Shown: positions 1 through 26,921 of the stretch, one piece after another | How the letters are laid out: each line of letters begins with the position of its first letter | How positions within the stretch are numbered: the stretch's first letter is position 1 | Assembly: GCA_041743715.1 (NCBI GenBank) | Contig: JBGTMH010000004.1 | Span: 1,097 to 65,096, forward strand | Origin: Patescibacteria group bacterium | Lineage (GTDB): Bacteria; Patescibacteriota; Microgenomatia; Levybacterales; UBA12049 | Length of the DNA stretch: 64,000 nucleotides | Reading direction: 5' to 3' | Notes under the pieces: generated by a model | Told to the model about the DNA's origin: nothing | Seen by the model: only the letters and a program-made list of their open reading frames with translations | Database searches by the model: none | Made by a program: the position numbers and the translations under genes

Positions 1-207
1 GAAAGTGTCTTAGGAACGCTCTCAGACCGCGAGAGAAGGGTCCTCAAAGAACGTTTCGGTCTTGATGATGGACGACCAAAGACACTTGAAGAAGTAGGAC
101 GAATGTTCCAAGTCACAAGAGAGCGTATCCGACAAATAGAAGCCAAAGCTTTGAGAAAACTCCGCCACCCGTCCAGGGGAAACAAGCTTAGAGATTATTT
201 GGTATAA
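1..207 (+). CDS. rpoD: RNA polymerase sigma-70 family factor, C-terminal fragment (region 4); 5' end lies outside the window
   Basis: Frame 1 reads ...[59 protein letters not shown], the region 4.2 helix-turn-helix of primary sigma factors. Stop TAA at 205-207. Absent from the ORF track because there is no start in the window. Confidence 0.8.
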
Positions 208-3250: not shown

Positions 3251-3396
3251 AGTATACAGGAATCAAATTCACGGGTAGATTTGAATTATGGTTCATGGTA
3301 AAATACCTGATACAGATATTCCGCATGGTTTTCCAATTGGTTAATCAATTTTATCTGTAGATTCCGCGATAGCTCAGCGGTAGAGCAGGAAGCTGT

Positions 3397-3949
3397 AGCA
3401 CTTTTTATATAATTTGGTTATACTTTATGGTATGCCAGATAAGAGAACGTATACCGATCGCCGTGAGTATTTAATAATGGCTGTAGCTCGAAGAAGGAAA
3501 CGACTAAGAGCACGAGCAGTTGAATACAAAGGTGGTAAGTGTATTGTGTGTGGATACTGTCGTTGCCAAGCAGCGCTAGATTTCCACCATTTGGATCCAA
3601 CTCAGAAAGAGTTTGGTATCTCAATGGATGGGATAACGCGATCTTGGGAGCGAGTCCAGAACGAGTTAGACAAATGTGTTCTTGTCTGCTCCAATTGCCA
3701 CAGAGAAATACACGCAGGTATATTGCAGCCCTCTGGAGTAATCCAGGGAGGAAAAAATGGGGTGAACTCAGGGAAGCCGTATAAGGTAATCCTGAGCCAA
3801 GCTTAGCGAAAGACATAAGAGTAGCTAGGAAGGTGCAGAGACTAAGAGTGAGGAGTCAAACCAATAAGCTCTAAATAGCGCCCCACATCCTATTCATTTA
3901 TGAAGGATGATGAGATAGTCCACACTTCTGGAAACAGAAGATAAAAGTG
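3397..3949 (+). mobile_element. Group I intron (IC3-like) in the tRNA anticodon loop, carrying a homing-endonuclease ORF
   Basis: U (3396) precedes the 5' splice site and G (3949) ends the intron. gagccaagctt (3794-3804) and gaaggtgcagagacta (3829-3844) closely match the P5/P6 and J6/7-P7 core strings I recall from the Azoarcus tRNA-Ile and Anabaena tRNA-Leu introns. There is a GAAA-capped hairpin cttctg-gaaa-cagaag at 3925-3940. Exact junctions are inferred from the tRNA reconstruction. Confidence 0.75.
3432..3806 (+). CDS. HNH homing endonuclease (intron-encoded)
   Basis: MPDKRTYTDRREYLIMAVARRRKRL...GGKCIVCGY...LDFHHLDP...VLVCSNCHREIH: an HNH nuclease motif with two Cys pairs. The track ORF starts at TTG 3414; the first ATG is at 3432. 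The 3' end of the ORF runs into the conserved intron core. Confidence 0.8.
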   Translation: MPDKRTYTDRREYLIMAVARRRKRLRARAVEYKGGKCIVCGYCRCQAALDFHHLDPTQKEFGISMDGITRSWERVQNELDKCVLVCSNCHREIHAGILQPSGVIQGGKNGVNSGKPYKVILSQA

Positions 3950-4106
3950 TAACTTCAAGGTCCGAGGTTCGAATCCTCGTCGCGGAGCTGCAAAAAGAAG
4001 TCGGGATCTTATTCCGCTATTCTTTCAAAGAAATGTGTATTGCGATTGATTTTGGTAAGTGGCATAATATAGTGAAATAGTTATTAGGAAAGGTGGTGAA
4101 TAAATT

Positions 4107-18384: not shown

Positions 18385-20943
18385 ATGCCTCATATTCAGC
18401 AGGTAGCGTTTATCAAAAATCATAAGAAACTCTTTGGCGTCATCAGCATCCTTGTGATTGCTTTTATTTTATCCTTAACCGTCTTCACTGCCCAACAGCA
18501 ACAAAATACCAATAGCAAAGCAATAAATGTAAAACGTGTGGCTTCAATTAGTGAGAAAAAGTTATTTGCCGCCCCTTCTTTACTGGCGATGAATAACCGA
18601 GTGGTCACGATTAGAAGAGCACCTGTATTTTCAACCACGTCAGTGAAAGGAAAATATGCCGGAAAACAAAATAATGGCGTTGCCGGTGTCATTATTAATG
18701 GGCCGATTCGGGTTTTTGATTCCTGGTGGTGGCATGTCGATTTTGATTCAGGTCCTGATGGCTGGACAAGTGAAGATTTCTTGAGAAAAATAAGCGGAGA
18801 TAATCCATCCCCTGAGCCTATACCTACTGGTGTGCCATATAGCCTGCAGGCTCCACTTATTGTTAATCTGGATCCTGCAAACAATTCCAAAGTAAACAGG
18901 TCATCGGTCGTAGTAAAAGGAGGAGTCGTCGACAGTGTCTCGCCTGCGTCGCAAATAAAAATGACTATTAATAATGAACCTGTGAATCTTACTGCTGATG
19001 GGGCCTTCCAAAAAGTGCTGCAATTACCTAATCGACAAAACGCGTTCAATTTCCGCACGTACGGTGCCGACAAAAATCCTCGTCAACAGACAAATGTTCT
19101 CACGGCATATCTTGACGGTTCCGTGATCTATGGCTCTGATGCCCAGCGCGCAGCAGCACTTCGTACATTCAGCGCAGGTAAGCTCAAAACTACTGCCGGC
19201 AATCTTCCTCCCTTAAACACCGAAGGCTTACCAAATACAAATGATGCGCATATTTTCCCAAATGACCAAATGTTCCTTGCAGGCGACACGAGATCCAATG
19301 AAAATATAGAACTTACCGCAACCCATACGCTCTTTATCCGCGAACATAATTTACTCGCTGATGCAATTGCAAGGCAATATCCAGCTTTAACTGATGAGGA
19401 AATTTATCAGAGTGCCCGGCAAATTGTTGCGGCAGAATTACAGGTAATTACCTATAAAGAATTTATCCCTGCGCTCTTAGGTTCCAATGTCTTACCTCCT
19501 TATAATGGATACAAACCAAACGTCAATGCTGGTATTGCCAATGAATTCTCAACAGCGGCATTTCGTATCGGGCATACACTCGTCAACGATGATGTGGAAT
19601 TTTTTGATAATGAAGGCGAAGAAGTTCGTGAGGAGTTAGAGCTTGCTGAAGCTTTTTTCAATCCCCACGTATTAAGAGAAACAGGTCCTGATCCGATTTT
19701 GAAATATTTAGCTACAGATAACGCACAGGAAGTTGATACAAAAATAGTGAGAGGCCTACGAGACTTTCTCTTCGGACCTGCAGGTGCCGGAGGATTAGAT
19801 CTGGCTTCACTAAATATCCAACGCGGCCGTGATCATGGGCTTTCGGATTATAATACAACTCGGAAAGCATACGGCCTGCCGCCTATCACAAATTTTAATC
19901 AGATTACAAGTAATATAGAACTGCAGCAAAAACTCAGGGACGTTTACGGGAATGTCAATAATATTGATCTTTGGGTGGGAGGTCTGGCTGAAGATCATGT
20001 AAGTGGTACCAGTGTCGGTCAGACGTTTCAGAAAATTATGGCAGATCAGTTTATACGACTGCGGGATGGAGATCGCTTTTGGTATCAGCGAAATTTTTCA
20101 GGCAAACAGCTTGCAGCTCTGGAATCCACCCGGCTTTCGGATGTTATACGACGGAATACCACAATTACCAAATTACAAGATAATGTCTTTTTCTTTGACG
20201 AAGATACAACGCTTCCAAGTCTGGTTGCAAAAGCTGGATCAATCCCAGATGGATTAATCGGTAATGGAAACCGTCCAAATAAAAATGCCTTCGTGCCGTT
20301 TGATGCGTATGGGAATAATAAAACATATCCATATTGGGGACAAGCCGGAGTTGCGTTGGTCAGGATGGCACCGGCATCGTATGCAGATGGTATTGCAACT
20401 CCAGCAGGACCCAGCAGACCAAGCCCACGGCTTATTAGTAACATGGTTGCCTCTCAAAGTGCTGAAGAAATGGGTGAAGATGCTCCAAGAAATAACCGTC
20501 AGATATCTGACTGGATTTATGCGTGGGGACAATTCATTGATCATGATTTTGGTCTCACAAGCGGTTCATCGGAAGCTTTCCCTATTCAAGTACCCAAAGG
20601 TGATCCGTTATTTGATCCTGAAAAGACCGGAGGACAGATTATCCCACTGAGACGCTCAATGTATGACGTCGGAACAGGGACAGGGACGACGAAATATCGT
20701 GATATGAACTATATGCTGCGTGTTTCACACCTGTCAATTGGTAAAATAATCAAATTGAAAGGATTACATAAACTCTATGCAAATCCTTCCATTCAAGGTC
20801 AGGAACTCTATAGGCATAACGTCAGCGCTGAAGGAACAATACTCGCTGGACCTATCGCAGCAGAAGGTCAAAACTGGTGGCGTATTTACAGCCAAGGAAA
20901 AAGCGGCTGGATCCCCGAATCTGCACTGGATGATAATCCGTAG
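18385..20943 (+). CDS. Animal-haem-peroxidase family protein with non-canonical (circularly permuted) segment order, flanked by SH3b-like domains
   Basis: TNVLTAYLDGSVIYGS, FLAGDTRSNE, LFIREHN, FRIGHTLV, LNIQRGRDHGLSDYN and DGDRFWY come first (aa ~223-600). DAYGNN...WGQAG...YADG...WGQFIDHDFG...PKGDPLFDP...IPLRRS follow at aa ~635-758. N-terminal TM anchor. SH3-like W-rich domains lie at aa ~70-135 and ~775-850. Confidence 0.8.
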   Translation: MPHIQQVAFIKNHKKLFGVISILVIAFILSLTVFTAQQQQNTNSKAINVKRVASISEKKLFAAPSLLAMNNRVVTIRRAPVFSTTSVKGKYAGKQNNGVAGVIINGPIRVFDSWWWHVDFDSGPDGWTSEDFLRKISGDNPSPEPIPTGVPYSLQAPLIVNLDPANNSKVNRSSVVVKGGVVDSVSPASQIKMTINNEPVNLTADGAFQKVLQLPNRQNAFNFRTYGADKNPRQQTNVLTAYLDGSVIYGSDAQRAAALRTFSAGKLKTTAGNLPPLNTEGLPNTNDAHIFPNDQMFLAGDTRSNENIELTATHTLFIREHNLLADAIARQYPALTDEEIYQSARQIVAAELQVITYKEFIPALLGSNVLPPYNGYKPNVNAGIANEFSTAAFRIGHTLVNDDVEFFDNEGEEVREELELAEAFFNPHVLRETGPDPILKYLATDNAQEVDTKIVRGLRDFLFGPAGAGGLDLASLNIQRGRDHGLSDYNTTRKAYGLPPITNFNQITSNIELQQKLRDVYGNVNNIDLWVGGLAEDHVSGTSVGQTFQKIMADQFIRLRDGDRFWYQRNFSGKQLAALESTRLSDVIRRNTTITKLQDNVFFFDEDTTLPSLVAKAGSIPDGLIGNGNRPNKNAFVPFDAYGNNKTYPYWGQAGVALVRMAPASYADGIATPAGPSRPSPRLISNMVASQSAEEMGEDAPRNNRQISDWIYAWGQFIDHDFGLTSGSSEAFPIQVPKGDPLFDPEKTGGQIIPLRRSMYDVGTGTGTTKYRDMNYMLRVSHLSIGKIIKLKGLHKLYANPSIQGQELYRHNVSAEGTILAGPIAAEGQNWWRIYSQGKSGWIPESALDDNP

Positions 20944-24671: not shown

Positions 24672-26921
24672 ATGGCACAAGAATATATCCAGATTCGCGG
24701 CGCTCGCGAAAACAATCTGAAGAATGTCTCGCTTACTATACCGAAGCGTAAAATAACGATATTTACTGGAGTTTCAGGCTCTGGTAAATCATCGATAGTA
24801 TTTGATACCATTGCCACAGAAGCCCAGCGTCAGCTCAATGAAAACTTCAGCGCTTTTATCCGTGGCTTTCTACCGAGGTATTCGCAGCCTGATGCTGATG
24901 CAATTGAAAATTTAAGTATGGCAATTGTTGTCGATCAGAAACGTATGGGTGGCGGATCGCATTCGACTATGGGGACAATTACCGATATTTATACTGTGTT
25001 GCGGCTTTTGTTCTCTCGCGTCGGCAAACCGTTTGTCGGGTATTCCAATGTGTTTTCTTTTAATGATCCCCAAGGCATGTGTCCTGACTGTAATGGATTA
25101 GGACGAAAGATAGGTATTAACTCCGATGGTTTTTTGGATATGACCAAGTCGCTCAATGAAGGCGCTGTTCAGGTTCCTCTGTTCGTTGTTTGGGAGAAGG
25201 AAAGTTATAAAAGTTCAGGATTTTTTGATAACGATAAAAAACTCTCAGATTTTACCCCCGAGGAAATGGATTTACTCTTGCATGGCAAAGACCGCAAGTT
25301 TAAATTTAAAATTGGTGAAGGTACGATGAACGCAACCTACCTTGGGATTATTGAAAAGCTTACCCGTTCATATATCAAACGCGATATCAAAACGTTATCA
25401 GAACGCACACAAAAAATGGTTGCACCGTATCTAACGTTTGGTCCATGTGATCTGTGCCGCGGAACCCGCCTCAGCCAAGCGACGCTCAGTTGCAAAATAA
25501 ACGGCCGCAATATCGCTGAACTTTCCTCAATGGAAGTAACCGAGTTGCTCCAGGTAATCAAAGCAATAAAAGATCCGGTTGCGACGACAATGGTCAAGAC
25601 ATTAACAGAACGTTTGCAGCACGTGAGTGATATCGGTCTTGAATATCTCAGTCTTAACCGTGAAACTGACACATTATCTGGTGGAGAATCACAGCGAATC
25701 AAAATGGTCAAACATCTCTCAAGTAGTCTGGTCGATGTGATGTATATTTTTGATGAACCAAGTGTGGGCCTGCATCCACGGGATGTACATCGTTTGAATG
25801 AATTGTTACAAAAATTACGTGATAAAGGGAATACCGTTATTGTGGTCGAGCATGATCCTGATGTCATAAAAGTTGCTGATTACATCGTTGATGTCGGACC
25901 ACACGCAGGAAGCAGGGGAGGTACGATTGTTTACGAAGGAAGCTTTGCTGATCTGCTCAAAGCAGATACATTGACCGGCAAACACATGAGTCAATCTTTG
26001 CCGATCAAAGAAACGTTTCGTCCTGCCAAAGGCAAGCTTCCGATTGTGAACGCCAACAAAAATAATCTGCAAAACGTCAGTGTCGATATCCCGACTGGTG
26101 TGCTGACGGTCATAACTGGTGTTGCCGGTTCGGGTAAAAGTTCACTCATCCATCAGGTTTTTCTCAAACAGCATCTCGATGCCATCGTCATCGACCAATC
26201 AGCAGTCGGAGCTAACTCCCGTTCCAATCCTGCCACGTATACAGGCATTATGGATGACGTGCGCAAAGCGTTTGCTGATGCAAATAAAGTAAATGCAGGA
26301 TTATTTAGCTTCAATTCCACAGGTGCCTGCGAAAATTGTCAGGGACAAGGGGTGGTATATACAGACTTAGCATTCCTGGATGCTGTCAAAAGTCCATGCG
26401 AAGTCTGTGGTGGAAAGCGTTTCAAAGATGAAGTGCTGAAATACACATTGAACGGTAAATCTATCGCGGATGTACTAGAGATGACTGTCGAGCAAGCGCT
26501 TAATTACTTTAGTATCCGTGATATCGTCCGCAAGTTACAATCGATGAGTGATGTGGGTTTGAATTATCTAAAGCTCGGACAGCCACTGAACACACTCTCA
26601 GGTGGCGAATGTCAAAGAATCAAATTAGCAAGTGAATTGCACAAAAAAGGAAGTATTTATGTGATGGATGAGCCGACAACTGGTCTGCATATGTCTGATT
26701 TAAGCCATTTATTAACAATCATGAACAGTCTTGTCGATAAGGGCAACACAGTCATTGTCATAGAACACAACCTCGACGTAATCAGAAATGCTGATTGGAT
26801 TATCGACATGGGTCCCGAAGGTGGCTCGAAGGGTGGGAAAGTTATGTTCGAGGGTACTCCAAAACAGCTGCTTTTAGCAAAACATTCACTAACAAGTGAG
26901 TATTTGCAGAAATCATTATGA
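24672..26921 (+). CDS. UvrA-family ABC ATPase, short (UvrA2-like) form
   Basis: IRGARENNLKN, two Walker A motifs (GVSGSGKSS and GVAGSGKSS), two LSGGE signatures and Zn-finger Cys pairs. It is 749 aa versus ~940 aa for canonical UvrA. Confidence 0.85.
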   Translation: MAQEYIQIRGARENNLKNVSLTIPKRKITIFTGVSGSGKSSIVFDTIATEAQRQLNENFSAFIRGFLPRYSQPDADAIENLSMAIVVDQKRMGGGSHSTMGTITDIYTVLRLLFSRVGKPFVGYSNVFSFNDPQGMCPDCNGLGRKIGINSDGFLDMTKSLNEGAVQVPLFVVWEKESYKSSGFFDNDKKLSDFTPEEMDLLLHGKDRKFKFKIGEGTMNATYLGIIEKLTRSYIKRDIKTLSERTQKMVAPYLTFGPCDLCRGTRLSQATLSCKINGRNIAELSSMEVTELLQVIKAIKDPVATTMVKTLTERLQHVSDIGLEYLSLNRETDTLSGGESQRIKMVKHLSSSLVDVMYIFDEPSVGLHPRDVHRLNELLQKLRDKGNTVIVVEHDPDVIKVADYIVDVGPHAGSRGGTIVYEGSFADLLKADTLTGKHMSQSLPIKETFRPAKGKLPIVNANKNNLQNVSVDIPTGVLTVITGVAGSGKSSLIHQVFLKQHLDAIVIDQSAVGANSRSNPATYTGIMDDVRKAFADANKVNAGLFSFNSTGACENCQGQGVVYTDLAFLDAVKSPCEVCGGKRFKDEVLKYTLNGKSIADVLEMTVEQALNYFSIRDIVRKLQSMSDVGLNYLKLGQPLNTLSGGECQRIKLASELHKKGSIYVMDEPTTGLHMSDLSHLLTIMNSLVDKGNTVIVIEHNLDVIRNADWIIDMGPEGGSKGGKVMFEGTPKQLLLAKHSLTSEYLQKSL

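Follow-up and report, generated by a model that had tools for sequence, protein, structure and literature searches.

The stretch from 3363 to 3987 of the window (the whole 64,000 nt of DNA analysed here) is very likely a tRNA-Asn(GUU) gene into which, between positions 35 and 36, a mobile and self-splicing group I intron has inserted; the intron belongs to a family already described from Patescibacteria and has an HNH gene in the loop of its P1 helix. We infer the splicing of the window RNA from its anatomy and from homology: in vitro self-splicing, with the 35/36 junction sequenced, has been reported for the tRNA-Asn intron of GCA_016700035.1 (Nakagawa et al., mSystems 2026, PMC13011429). The first-pass annotation had taken the host, the insertion site and the type of endonuclease to be unusual and unreported, a view that is out of date: the tRNA-Asn site was first listed, as Asn.4Ug, by Williams (bioRxiv 2020, 10.1101/2020.01.27.920355), and the available text of Nakagawa et al. 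describes group I introns at tRNA-Asn(GUU) 35/36 in Patescibacteria, including four tRNA-Asn introns with an HNH gene. One of these four, in GCA_001029735.1, corresponds to our homologue L075, whose HNH protein is 62% identical to that of the window. The window intron shares with the published set the host tRNA, the insertion site, the GCAGC guide and the type of P7.1, and differs in its origin from a MAG contig outside their complete genomes. Since the kind has been published and shown to splice, the window intron is a further example and not a discovery.

The two tRNA halves (34 and 38 nt), which had been proposed to lie 553 nt apart and to join into a tRNA-Asn cloverleaf, are recovered by ARAGORN: the joined halves give tRNA-Asn(gtt), and the unspliced DNA, with introns allowed, gives tRNA-Asn (gtt) i(35,553). 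The best BLAST matches of the spliced sequence are annotated tRNA-Asn genes, and the cloverleaf is standard except for one G27.A43 mismatch in the anticodon stem. CCA is not encoded in the gene (3988-3990 read CTG). The 5' exon architecture ending in CTGT is common to 58 homologous loci, and a U1-A72 pair together with a discriminator G, both of them features of tRNA-Asn, is present in every homologous locus.

The group I call is borne out by Rfam: Intron_gpI (RF00028), the sole Rfam match in the window, covers 3710-3941 over the full model (1-253) with 89.2 bits (E=1.8e-21), the gathering score being 50 bits. Both core strings on which the call had been based are found where they were reported, gagccaagctt (3794-3804) in P4'/P6 and gaaggtgcagagacta (3829-3844) in J6/7-P7; both are conserved elements of the catalytic core of group I introns. 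The GAAA-capped hairpin noted near the 3' end is present as well and represents P9, and the intron indeed begins after U3396 and has G3949 as its last base. Relatives of the nuclease provide a broad comparison: 75 of the 80 genome loci that encode an HNH homologue do so within a tRNA split in its anticodon, either Asn(gtt) at 35/36 or, with a shift of 2 nt, Thr(ngt). In 57 of the anticodon-split loci the junction (exon CTGT, an intron ending in G, exon TAA) was rebuilt, and these together with the window form the 58-locus set used below. The Rfam gathering score was reached by 18 of 20 homologous loci checked, and in its core (3725-3949) the window intron agrees with the tRNA-Asn intron of GCA_016700035.1 at 164 of 205 positions (80%).

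Table 1. Features of the interrupted tRNA-Asn gene, its intron and the intron-borne ORF (positions of the window)
Feature	Position	Strand	Evidence and remarks
5' exon of tRNA-Asn(GUU)	3363-3396	+	Acceptor 5' strand, D arm, anticodon stem 5' strand, loop C32 U33 G34 U35; ARAGORN, joined and unspliced
P1, 5' strand (exon G31-U35 plus intron +1, +2)	3392-3398	+	Pairs with 3723-3729; U3396 in a U.G wobble marking the predicted 5' splice site
Group I intron, 553 nt, between tRNA positions 35 and 36	3397-3949	+	Rfam RF00028; ARAGORN i(35,553); core 80% identical to self-splicing tRNA-Asn intron
-10-like boxes in P1 loop	3408-3424	+	TATAAT 3408-3413, TATACT 3419-3424; TATACT 7 nt upstream of HNH start codon
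HNH endonuclease ORF, 124 codons, ATG to TAG	3432-3806	+	ORF list; 1854 homologues
P1, 3' strand (internal guide sequence UU-GCAGC)	3723-3729	+	Inside ORF codons Leu-Gln-Pro
P2 hairpin, GUAA tetraloop	3731-3748	+	3731-3737 / 3742-3748; four loop-proximal pairs canonical in 57/57 loci, 5-6 pair types each
P3, 5' strand	3758-3764	+	Pairs with 3879-3885
P4, enclosing J4/5 and P5	3767-3796	+	P4 3767-3772 / 3791-3796; P5 3776-3778 / 3785-3787; covariation
P6 and P6a	3797-3833	+	P6 3797-3798 / 3832-3833; P6a 3802-3807 / 3824-3829, 4-6 canonical pair types per pair
P7, 5' strand GACUA (predicted guanosine-binding helix)	3840-3844	+	Pairs with 3916-3920 (UAGUC)
P7.1 hairpin	3845-3872	+	Stem AGAG/CUCU, interior UGAG...AAUAAG conserved; between P7 and P3'
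P3, 3' strand	3879-3885	+	Pairs with 3758-3764
P8 hairpin	3886-3909	+	3886-3891 / 3904-3909; proximal pairs canonical in 53-56/56 loci, up to 6 pair types
P7, 3' strand UAGUC	3916-3920	+	Pairs with 3840-3844
P9.0, 5' strand AC	3922-3923	+	Pairs with G3947-U3948, immediately before terminal G
P9 hairpin CUUCUG-GAAA-CAGAAG	3925-3940	+	Loop-proximal pairs covary
P9.0, 3' strand GU, and terminal guanosine G3949 (omega G)	3947-3949	+	Predicted 3' splice site; P9.0 covariation
3' exon of tRNA-Asn	3950-3987	+	U36, A37, A38, anticodon stem 3' strand, variable loop, T arm, acceptor 3' strand, discriminator G

Covariation over the 58 loci supports P2, P3, P4, P6a, P8 and P9. In P3, P4, P6a and P8 each pair occurs as 3-6 canonical pair types: five positions of P3 are canonical in 56/56 loci (types include CG29/UA21/GC5 and GC25/CG12/UA11/AU8), and the P4 pairs are canonical in 54-58 of 58 loci, with compensatory types such as AU21/CG19/GC17. 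P7 is nearly invariant, four of its pairs forming in 58/58 loci and one in 57/58. In 57 loci the guide GCAGC directly precedes P2, L019 being the only one of the 58 in which it was not located; in the validated ORF-less intron the guide comes after a P1 loop of 5 nt. Rfam's own 5'-most hairpin on 3714-3735, taken as P2, conflicts with the covarying P1/P2 and was rejected.

The ORF is intact, as had been described, and its 3' end overlaps the ribozyme core. It sits in a P1 loop of ~330 nt, and its final 82 nt, from 3725 in the internal guide sequence through P2 to P6a at 3806, belong to both the reading frame and the ribozyme. The conserved HNH protein comprises approximately residues 1-105; its last conserved codons coincide with the guide sequence, and the tail that follows is a translation of the ribozyme. 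Because of this overlap, the translation of any one RNA molecule has to compete with its folding. The available text of Nakagawa et al. (PMC13011429) gives no location of the ORF within the intron. In 36 of 51 loci, versus 13 of 336 control windows, the ATG is preceded at a distance of 5-11 nt (mostly 6-9) by a TATAAT/TATACT box. An upstream TGn accompanies the box in 19 of those 36 loci, and the box is possibly an internal promoter that expresses the HNH ORF; no Shine-Dalgarno sequence was found upstream of the ATG.

With regard to the protein, we infer nuclease activity, and tRNA-Asn as its target, from sequence and distribution. The motif CxxC ... HH ... CxxCH is present, and the window protein keeps every residue that is invariant in the family (C37, C40, H53, C86, N88, C89, H90 and H94 in 36 sequences) as well as the nearly invariant H52 (at least 90% of the 36). 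A profile search recovers 6me0 and McrA 6ghc through their HNH domains, and PF01844 is matched by 25 of the 36 members at E<=0.01 (best 1.1e-6). The AlphaFold model (pLDDT 81.8 overall, <50 for residues 110-124) shows strands at 49-53 and 82-86 and a helix at 87-94 as a candidate beta-beta-alpha-metal fold; nearly all of the 50 Foldseek matches listed, including all top ones, are HNH domains (Cas9, Cap5, Gme HNH, T4 endonuclease VII), at weak scores with all E > 0.001. A different enzyme is found in the Synechocystis-type tRNA-fMet(CAU) intron, which is likewise a bacterial anticodon-loop group I intron with a homing endonuclease gene (PMC13011429), but is inserted at 33/34 in a cyanobacterial host and encodes a PD-(D/E)XK fold (PF11645) instead of an HNH domain (PF01844).

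It could be argued that the intron splices while its HNH protein is something other than a tRNA-Asn homing endonuclease, for example an inactive protein, one that assists splicing, or a nuclease that cuts elsewhere. With ~105 conserved residues the protein is very small, its own PF01844 score (17.0 bits) lies below the gathering score of 21.4, and neither the available text of Nakagawa et al. nor the literature searched reports activity for any member of the family. We nevertheless consider this unlikely. Neither the zinc ligands nor the catalytic residues vary among 36 diverse members, suggesting that activity is under selection, and introns that are otherwise homologous occur both with and without the ORF: a 234-nt ORF-less homologue (GCA_016700035.1) exists beside the ORF-bearing 553-nt form. 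Free-standing relatives in phage tRNA arrays adjoin tRNA-Asn in 37 of 66 loci, even though Asn accounts for only 14% of the tRNAs there, the pattern expected of a nuclease that targets this gene. The existence of versions with and without the ORF, the occurrence in many phyla and the phage relatives beside tRNA-Asn thus support a homing role.

The hosts of the HNH-bearing loci are labelled as belonging to at least six phyla and include a 5.5-Mb Pyrinomonadaceae chromosome. Outside Patescibacteria, HNH-bearing copies were observed in hosts labelled Acidobacteriota, Planctomycetota, Elusimicrobiota, Omnitrophota and Verrucomicrobiota; in the complete genomes covered by the available text of Nakagawa et al. 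(PMC13011429) spread beyond Patescibacteria was not seen. The host of the window itself probably belongs to Patescibacteria, to judge from named homologues of its genes and from the rpoD located nearby. A UvrA-like protein, ~80% identical across several phyla, is uninformative as a taxonomic marker.

Free-standing copies of the same HNH family occur in phage tRNA arrays, usually beside tRNA-Asn. Homologues were found in 450 GenBank phage records, with 53-72% identity over the HNH core, e.g. in Bacillus phage Bastille (YP_006907301.1), Vibrio phage F86 and Erwinia phage Kaldavass. They differ from the intron protein in lying outside introns; most of the top GenBank matches align only from residue 30, so that the basic helix at the N terminus of the intron protein is missing from them, and additional domains occur in some, as in the phage contig L081. 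On this contig the free-standing HNH gene lies ~255 nt upstream of a tRNA-Asn gene that contains an ORF-less homologous intron; the short tRNA introns of L081 are undetected by Rfam even at E<=0.01 and are detected by a family-specific nhmmer profile. T4 SegB, encoded in the T4 tRNA region, is also a homing endonuclease of a phage tRNA cluster, but it is a GIY-YIG enzyme unrelated in sequence to HNH. The link between phage HNH genes and tRNA-Asn, and the HNH copies outside Patescibacteria, appear to be new within the literature searched. We tentatively propose, at somewhat less than an even chance, that an HNH lineage specialised on tRNA-Asn genes, and mostly free-standing in phage tRNA arrays, was captured in the P1 loop of the intron and that the composite element spread beyond Patescibacteria. 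The ORF-less intron of GCA_016700035.1, the free-standing HNH gene near an intron in L081 and the HNH gene inside the intron of the window may represent a natural series.

The label 'IC3-like', which the first-pass annotation had given to the intron, is not supported. The IC3 introns of Azoarcus tRNA-Ile and Anabaena tRNA-Leu are situated in the anticodon loop, have a ribozyme of ~200-250 nt with GNRA-capped P2 and P9 and lack P5abc; to our knowledge, both are ORF-less. The window intron is similarly compact: it lacks P5abc, and GNRA loops cap its P2 (GUAA) and P9 (GAAA). It also resembles them in its P4'-P6 and J6/7-P7 strings, which we take to be near-identical to theirs and which had been counted in favour of IC3; in addition, some relatives are without any insertion between P7 and P3'. 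Against this assignment stands the P7.1 hairpin, which is backed by covariation: between GACUA (3840-3844) and P3' (3879) the window has a 28-nt hairpin and a 6-nt linker, whereas in IC3 introns P3' follows P7 directly. A motif-anchored test of the P7-P3' insert showed this type of P7.1 to be common to 22 loci, fully paired in 21 of them and with 11 different stem sequences, and the interval holds zero, one or two hairpins (P7.1, or P7.1 plus P7.2) in the relatives. IC3 introns, in contrast to that of the window, are without P7.1/P7.2 and belong to another subgroup, and their insertion sites differ (Azoarcus tRNA-Ile(CAU); 34/35 for Anabaena and other cyanobacterial tRNA-Leu(UAA); PMC13011429). 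With subgroup covariance models, 25 of the 28 introns at 35/36 were placed in IA, and the available text of the same study puts none of the Patescibacteria tRNA introns in IC. Membership in IC3 is improbable, and by the hallmark of P7.1 the intron would be of IA type.

The phage IA introns (T4 td, nrdB and sunY; Twort) have the IA architecture with P7.1/P7.2 and intron-borne endonuclease genes in common with the window intron, and differ in that their hosts are protein-coding genes. Their ORFs have promoters of their own and occupy the loop of P6a or P9.1 rather than that of P1. I-TevIII is described as a defunct HNH-family endonuclease of a phage intron (PMC2790892).

Another possibility is that the intron has decayed into a remnant that no longer splices, which would make the interrupted tRNA-Asn gene a pseudogene. 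The extension of the ORF by 82 nt into the ribozyme would agree with decay, and another tRNA-Asn gene may exist outside the window. However, the window matches all 45 core columns that are at least 95% conserved in the intron family, every core helix is intact, the ORF retains all family-invariant residues, and the exon halves form a standard cloverleaf but for the single mismatch. Moreover, it is rare for one genome to contain copies both with and without an intron for the same anticodon, according to the available text of Nakagawa et al. (PMC13011429). A remnant is very improbable, and a functional intron at 35/36 remains our preferred reading.

The exact position of the splice sites calls for comment, because in the window two candidate junctions follow a U and end in G. 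A junction two bases upstream, after U33 and with the intron ending at G3947, would yield tRNA-Thr(UGU); ARAGORN gives Thr(tgt) i(33 or 34) in ~20 homologous loci, and the same ambiguity of ARAGORN and tFind is mentioned by Nakagawa et al. (PMC13011429). At the 3' end, both pairs of P9.0 form in 58/58 loci with 7 different dinucleotide combinations, and since P9.0 comprises the two bases directly before G3949 and shows compensatory changes, G3949 is the terminal G, directly before TAA. The base two upstream of omega is not G in 18 of the 58 loci (e.g. L008, L009, L011 and L012), in which a Thr junction is therefore impossible. At the 5' end, U35 pairs with G3725 as a wobble within GCUGU/GCAGC, whereas U33 faces A3727 in a Watson-Crick pair. 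P1 is short (5 exon pairs and 2 intron pairs, one of them G.U), and its exon pairs CUGU/GCAG show no variation among loci because the anticodon loop is fixed and leaves them unable to covary. The intron pairs do vary: +1 and the base that precedes the guide form a pair in 53 of 57 loci (A-U 28, G-C 20), and +1 and +2 are both paired in 37 of 57 loci versus 17.5 +/- 2.6 when permuted, with 0 of 10000 permutations reaching 37. By the registers of the P1 wobble and P9.0, the insertion is placed between anticodon-loop positions 35 and 36; together with the spliced body closest to annotated tRNA-Asn genes, the tRNA-Asn-like U1-A72 and discriminator G in every locus and the 35/36 junction sequenced experimentally in the 80% identical homologue (PMC13011429), the pairing registers effectively refute the Thr(UGU) reading.

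Two further pairings were considered in this connection. A second guide inside the ORF (3480-3488, intron ~78-90, Ala-Val codons GCNGTN), which reaches up to 9 bp in some loci in a longest-helix scan, was rejected: in a protein-guided alignment U33 is paired in only 29 of 56 loci, and pairing of positions 27-30 amounts to 116 versus 108.7 +/- 4.8 permuted (p=0.08). This complement to the 5' exon is best read as a by-product of a conserved Ala-Val dipeptide. A P10 joining the 3' exon to the bases that precede the guide was not detectable, with only 6-21 of 57 loci pairing per position, and the exons are presumably aligned by the anticodon stem instead.

For the tRNA-Asn intron at 35/36, the following course can be envisaged. 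In the folded precursor, exon G31-U35 and intron positions +1/+2 would pair with the guide UU-GCAGC, placing U35 in the U.G wobble, and a free guanosine bound in P7 would attack after U3396. P9.0 would next bring G3949 into the same site, and ligation of the exons, held by the tRNA's own anticodon stem and not by P10, would produce the loop CUGUUAA. The HNH nuclease would most likely cut intron-less tRNA-Asn genes, and repair would then copy the intron in (homing).

ARAGORN without introns finds no tRNA in the whole 64-kb window; the gene is missed by standard tRNA finders, and a genome of this kind would consequently be scored as lacking tRNA-Asn, a problem of annotation and completeness already raised by Nakagawa et al. 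(PMC13011429). Our study adds independent proof of both splice sites, drawn from sequence alone by way of P9.0 and P1 covariation, and places the nuclease gene in the P1 loop, where it overlaps the guide sequence. If the link to the phages is true, the family would offer a testable case of a ribozyme and a nuclease gene joining into one mobile element, and would point to phages as vehicles between phyla. The forms described above would then line up as a natural series that illustrates how mobile group I introns have been proposed to originate.

The split tRNA gene is real and intact, and the first-pass annotation read it correctly apart from the subgroup label. Joined, the halves at 3363-3396 and 3950-3987 fold, as had been proposed, into a standard cloverleaf, identified by ARAGORN as tRNA-Asn(gtt); when introns are permitted, the program returns tRNA-Asn(gtt) i(35,553) from the genomic sequence, and without this option it finds no tRNA across the whole 64 kb. 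The group I assignment is borne out by the Rfam group I model, which matches 3710-3941 (89.2 bits, gathering score 50, E=1.8e-21) and is the sole Rfam family detected in the window. The core strings, the GAAA hairpin at 3925-3940, the U before the intron, the terminal G3949 and the 124-codon ORF at 3432-3806 are each present as described. Only the IC3-like label is not supported: the hairpin at 3845-3872 is P7.1, the mark of subgroup IA. The gene does not encode CCA, its discriminator G being followed by CTG (3988-3990); CCA is encoded in many homologous loci. Downstream of the gene, at 4002-4026, a hairpin and its T-rich tail resemble a terminator.

The intron adds one more member to a family that was published, with experimental validation, in 2025-2026. 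New tRNA intron types were mapped by Williams (bioRxiv 2020, 10.1101/2020.01.27.920355), whose work is cited for type Asn.4Ug by Nakagawa et al. (preprint July 2025, mSystems January 2026; PMC13011429). The latter authors analysed 95 complete Patescibacteria genomes, classed the tRNA-Asn 35/36 introns as IA and no Patescibacteria tRNA intron as IC, reported four tRNA-Asn introns encoding HNH (PF01844) endonucleases, and showed in vitro that self-splicing is precise, with a change of the terminal G to C as the control. The core of the window intron is 80% identical (164/205) to the GCA_016700035.1 intron that they spliced in vitro, and the HNH-bearing intron of GCA_001029735.1 in their supplementary table is one of our homologous loci (L075).

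Homologues of the HNH ORF product number 1854 in a metagenomic protein collection, and relatives are encoded in at least 193 stretches of species-representative genomes, 80 of which were retained as loci. In 75 of these 80, ARAGORN detects a tRNA that is split in its anticodon and flanks the ORF. The isotypes are mostly Asn(gtt) with the intron at 35/36, about 20 are Thr(tgt or cgt) at 33/34, and four split loci receive other calls (Ser, Glu, His, Thr-ggt). Rfam confirmed group I in 18 of 20 loci checked, L047 and L066 lying under the gathering score. A strict exon-half pattern recovered the junction CTGT / intron ... G / TAA in 57 loci and in the window (58 loci together). At 45 alignment columns the other 57 introns are conserved to at least 95%; the window agrees with every one of these, and thus gives no sign of intron decay.

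Positions and arrangement of intron helices, promoter-like boxes and homologous loci (window coordinates unless a record is named)
Feature	Position	Record or host	Remarks
P2	3731-3737 + 3742-3748	window	GUAA loop; covariation, 58 loci
P3	3758-3764 + 3879-3885	window	covariation, 58 loci
P4	3767-3772 + 3791-3796	window	covariation, 58 loci
P6a	3802-3807 + 3824-3829	window	covariation, 58 loci
P7	3840-3844 + 3916-3920	window	nearly invariant over 58 loci
P7.1 hairpin	3845-3872	window	between P7 and P3'
P8	3886-3891 + 3904-3909	window	covariation, 58 loci
P9	3925-3930 + 3935-3940	window	GAAA loop; covariation, 58 loci
-10-like box TATAAT	3408-3413	window	upstream of HNH ATG 3432
-10-like box TATACT	3419-3424	window	upstream of HNH ATG 3432
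L070 intron		OY970389.1, Pyrinomonadaceae, 5.5-Mb chromosome	HNH-bearing, tRNA-Asn 35/36
L078 intron		OY970063.1, outside Patescibacteria by label	HNH-bearing, tRNA-Asn 35/36
L039/L044/L052 introns		Planctomycetota	HNH-bearing, tRNA-Asn 35/36
L162	6037-6480	NC_018856.1, Bacillus phage Bastille	tRNA-Asn, HNH, tRNA-Asn
Phage HNH		Bacillus phage Goe5	tRNA-Asn, HNH
Phage HNH		Vibrio phage F86	HNH overlaps start of tRNA-Asn
Phage HNH		Erwinia phage Kaldavass	HNH, tRNA-Asn
Phage HNH		Bacteroides phage DAC15 (crAss-like)	HNH in tRNA array; no adjoining tRNA-Asn
HNH ORF	1403-1928	L081	free-standing homologue, 74% identity over core
tRNA-Asn	1990-2258	L081	ORF-less 194-nt intron at 35/36
tRNA-Ser	702-1015	L081	224-nt intron

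Of the 22 loci with a hairpin of this type, 21 pair along the whole P7.1 stem, whose sequence comes in 11 variants. The stretch from P7 to P3' (window 3845-3878, and the same region in the genome loci L001-L080) is highly variable inside this one intron family: it consists of 4 nt, of a 12-nt hairpin, of a P7.1 of about 28 nt with a conserved UGAG...AAUAAG interior, or of P7.1 plus P7.2. The hallmarks of a subgroup thus come and go between close relatives.

A splice junction two bases upstream, after U33, would yield tRNA-Thr(UGU) instead of tRNA-Asn. Judged from the aligned sequences, the junction is settled as Asn by three independent lines, namely P9.0 covariation, the P1 wobble and the tRNA body. 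The dinucleotide preceding the proposed terminal G is complementary to the one that follows AGUCC (the 3' strand of P7) in all 58 loci, forming helix P9.0 in seven combinations (AC/GU 35, AU/AU 15, GC/GC 2, GG/CC 2, AA/UU 2, GU/AC 1, AG/CU 1), which fixes the terminal G at 3949, immediately 5' of TAA. The base two positions upstream of this G is a non-G in 18/58 loci, so that the Thr junction is impossible there. The guide GCAGC (3725-3729), found immediately 5' of P2 in 57/58 loci and not located in L019, pairs with exon G31-U35, with U35 opposite G, the canonical wobble, and U33 opposite A. P1 runs across the splice site into the intron, where +1 is paired with the nucleotide flanking the guide on its 5' side in 53/57 loci (A-U 28, G-C 20), and +1 and +2 are both paired in 37/57 loci, against 17.5 +/- 2.6 in 10000 permutations. 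Finally, the best matches of the spliced tRNA are annotated tRNA-Asn genes, and on these three counts the Thr junction is rejected. No P10 helix was detectable in a pairing test across 57 loci. A guide-like sequence at 3480-3488 (ORF codons Ala-Val-Ala) can pair with the 5' exon, over as many as 9 bp in certain relatives; permutation revealed no covariation of the conserved GCNGTN Ala-Val codons with the 5' exon, and this mimicry is hence a coding by-product.

The HNH family is strongly conserved as far as ...CHREIHAGxLQP, its invariant residues including C37, C40, H53, C86, N88, C89, H90 and H94. Alone, the window protein reaches 17 bits against Pfam PF01844 (cut-off 21.4), which 25 of 36 family members match at E<=0.01. 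Among solved structures the family profile finds the HNH domain of a group II intron maturase (6me0) and McrA (6ghc). The AlphaFold model has a pLDDT of 81.8, with residues 110-124 below 50; nearly all Foldseek matches in the PDB, and every top one, are HNH domains, none of them significant. In an ORF-less homologue the P1 loop measures 5 nt (UAAAG) and leads into the same GCAGC guide; the ORF of the window is thus an insert in this loop. ORF and ribozyme overlap over 82 nt (3725-3806): the guide is read as the codons Leu-Gln-Pro, and the unstructured tail is translated P2, P3, P4, P5 and half of P6a.

At the sequence level the analysis establishes the fold, the registers of the two splice sites, the tRNA identity, the integrity of the ORF and the homology to a validated ribozyme. 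Splicing would proceed in two guanosine-initiated steps to the loop CUGUUAA, the exons presumably being aligned by the anticodon stem and P9.0 rather than by P10, and the HNH protein would serve as a homing nuclease that targets tRNA-Asn genes lacking the intron. On any single RNA, a ribosome reading through the guide would preclude folding of the ribozyme, and vice versa. In 36/51 loci, compared with 13/336 control windows, the ATG has a -10-like box (TATAAT or TATACT, often with a TGn in front of it) at a distance of 5-11 nt, mostly 6-9 nt, on its 5' side, and no Shine-Dalgarno sequence precedes the HNH start codon. This suggests, as a hypothesis, that an internal promoter may give rise to a separate, nearly leaderless HNH mRNA, by which the conflict between translation and folding would be avoided.

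Named homologues of the fused MFS/spermidine-synthase protein of the window belong to Levybacteria, Paceibacterota, Campbellbacteria and Parcubacteria. The host is best taken as a member of the Patescibacteria, which places the intron within the published scope. In the closest loci, L001 (721-1827) and L004 (1671-2753), dnaG is followed by a short rpoD (361-369 codons) and then by tRNA-Asn; window 1-207 is the C-terminal end of rpoD, and about 3 kb of other genes separate it from the tRNA-Asn that directly adjoins it in these relatives. The short RpoD of L001 and L004 is at odds with their record label 'uncultured Gammaproteobacteria'. Among the other products of the window are a protein of 852 aa that contains an animal haem peroxidase domain (18385-20943; Pfam E=3e-155) and a UvrA-like one of 749 aa (24672-26921) that keeps about 80% identity even between very different phyla; both are unexpected for a host with a reduced genome.

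According to Nakagawa et al. (PMC13011429), endonuclease-bearing 35/36 IA introns occur, among complete genomes, in Patescibacteria only. HNH-bearing tRNA-Asn 35/36 introns are also present in genomes labelled otherwise (L070, L078, L039/L044/L052, L063, L073, L022), the host labels, beside Pyrinomonadaceae, being 'delta proteobacterium' (2.9-Mb chromosome), Sedimentisphaerales, Phycisphaerales, Elusimicrobia, Omnitrophota and Limisphaerales. Two of these copies lie on megabase-scale chromosomes, which makes a binning error unlikely.

More than 555 relatives of the HNH protein were found in a scan of viral contigs. The gene is free-standing in 66 distinct viral loci from IMG/VR, 64 of them within tRNA arrays, and tRNA-Asn(GTT) is its immediate same-strand neighbour in 37/66, sometimes on both sides, while Asn accounts for only 60 of the 437 tRNAs at these loci. 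Annotated phages contribute 450 records, and HNH stands beside tRNA-Asn in four of five sampled. In the viral locus L081 the HNH match ends about 255 nt upstream of a tRNA-Asn whose intron is homologous to the window family (family nhmmer profile, E=3.9e-7); Rfam missed both short introns of this locus, even at E<=0.01. The viral-classed contig L085 (IMGVR_UViG_3300033148_010428, 22-535) carries an intron-borne HNH that is 53% identical (Rfam group I 73.6 bits). Either this is a phage tRNA-Asn that holds the mobile intron in full, or a bacterial contig has been misclassified. Ten tRNA-Asn(gtt) calls beside phage HNH genes (L089, L092, L098, L099, L110, L112, L124, L126, L132, L145) run to 85-91 nt, an unusual length for tRNAs of class I, and may reflect miscalling or an insertion in the tRNA. 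Phage relatives of the HNH protein are not mentioned in the available portions of Nakagawa et al. (PMC13011429), and a literature search of limited coverage turned up nothing on a link between HNH genes and tRNA-Asn in phages. This phage link and the wider host range of HNH-bearing introns beyond Patescibacteria are worth pursuing.
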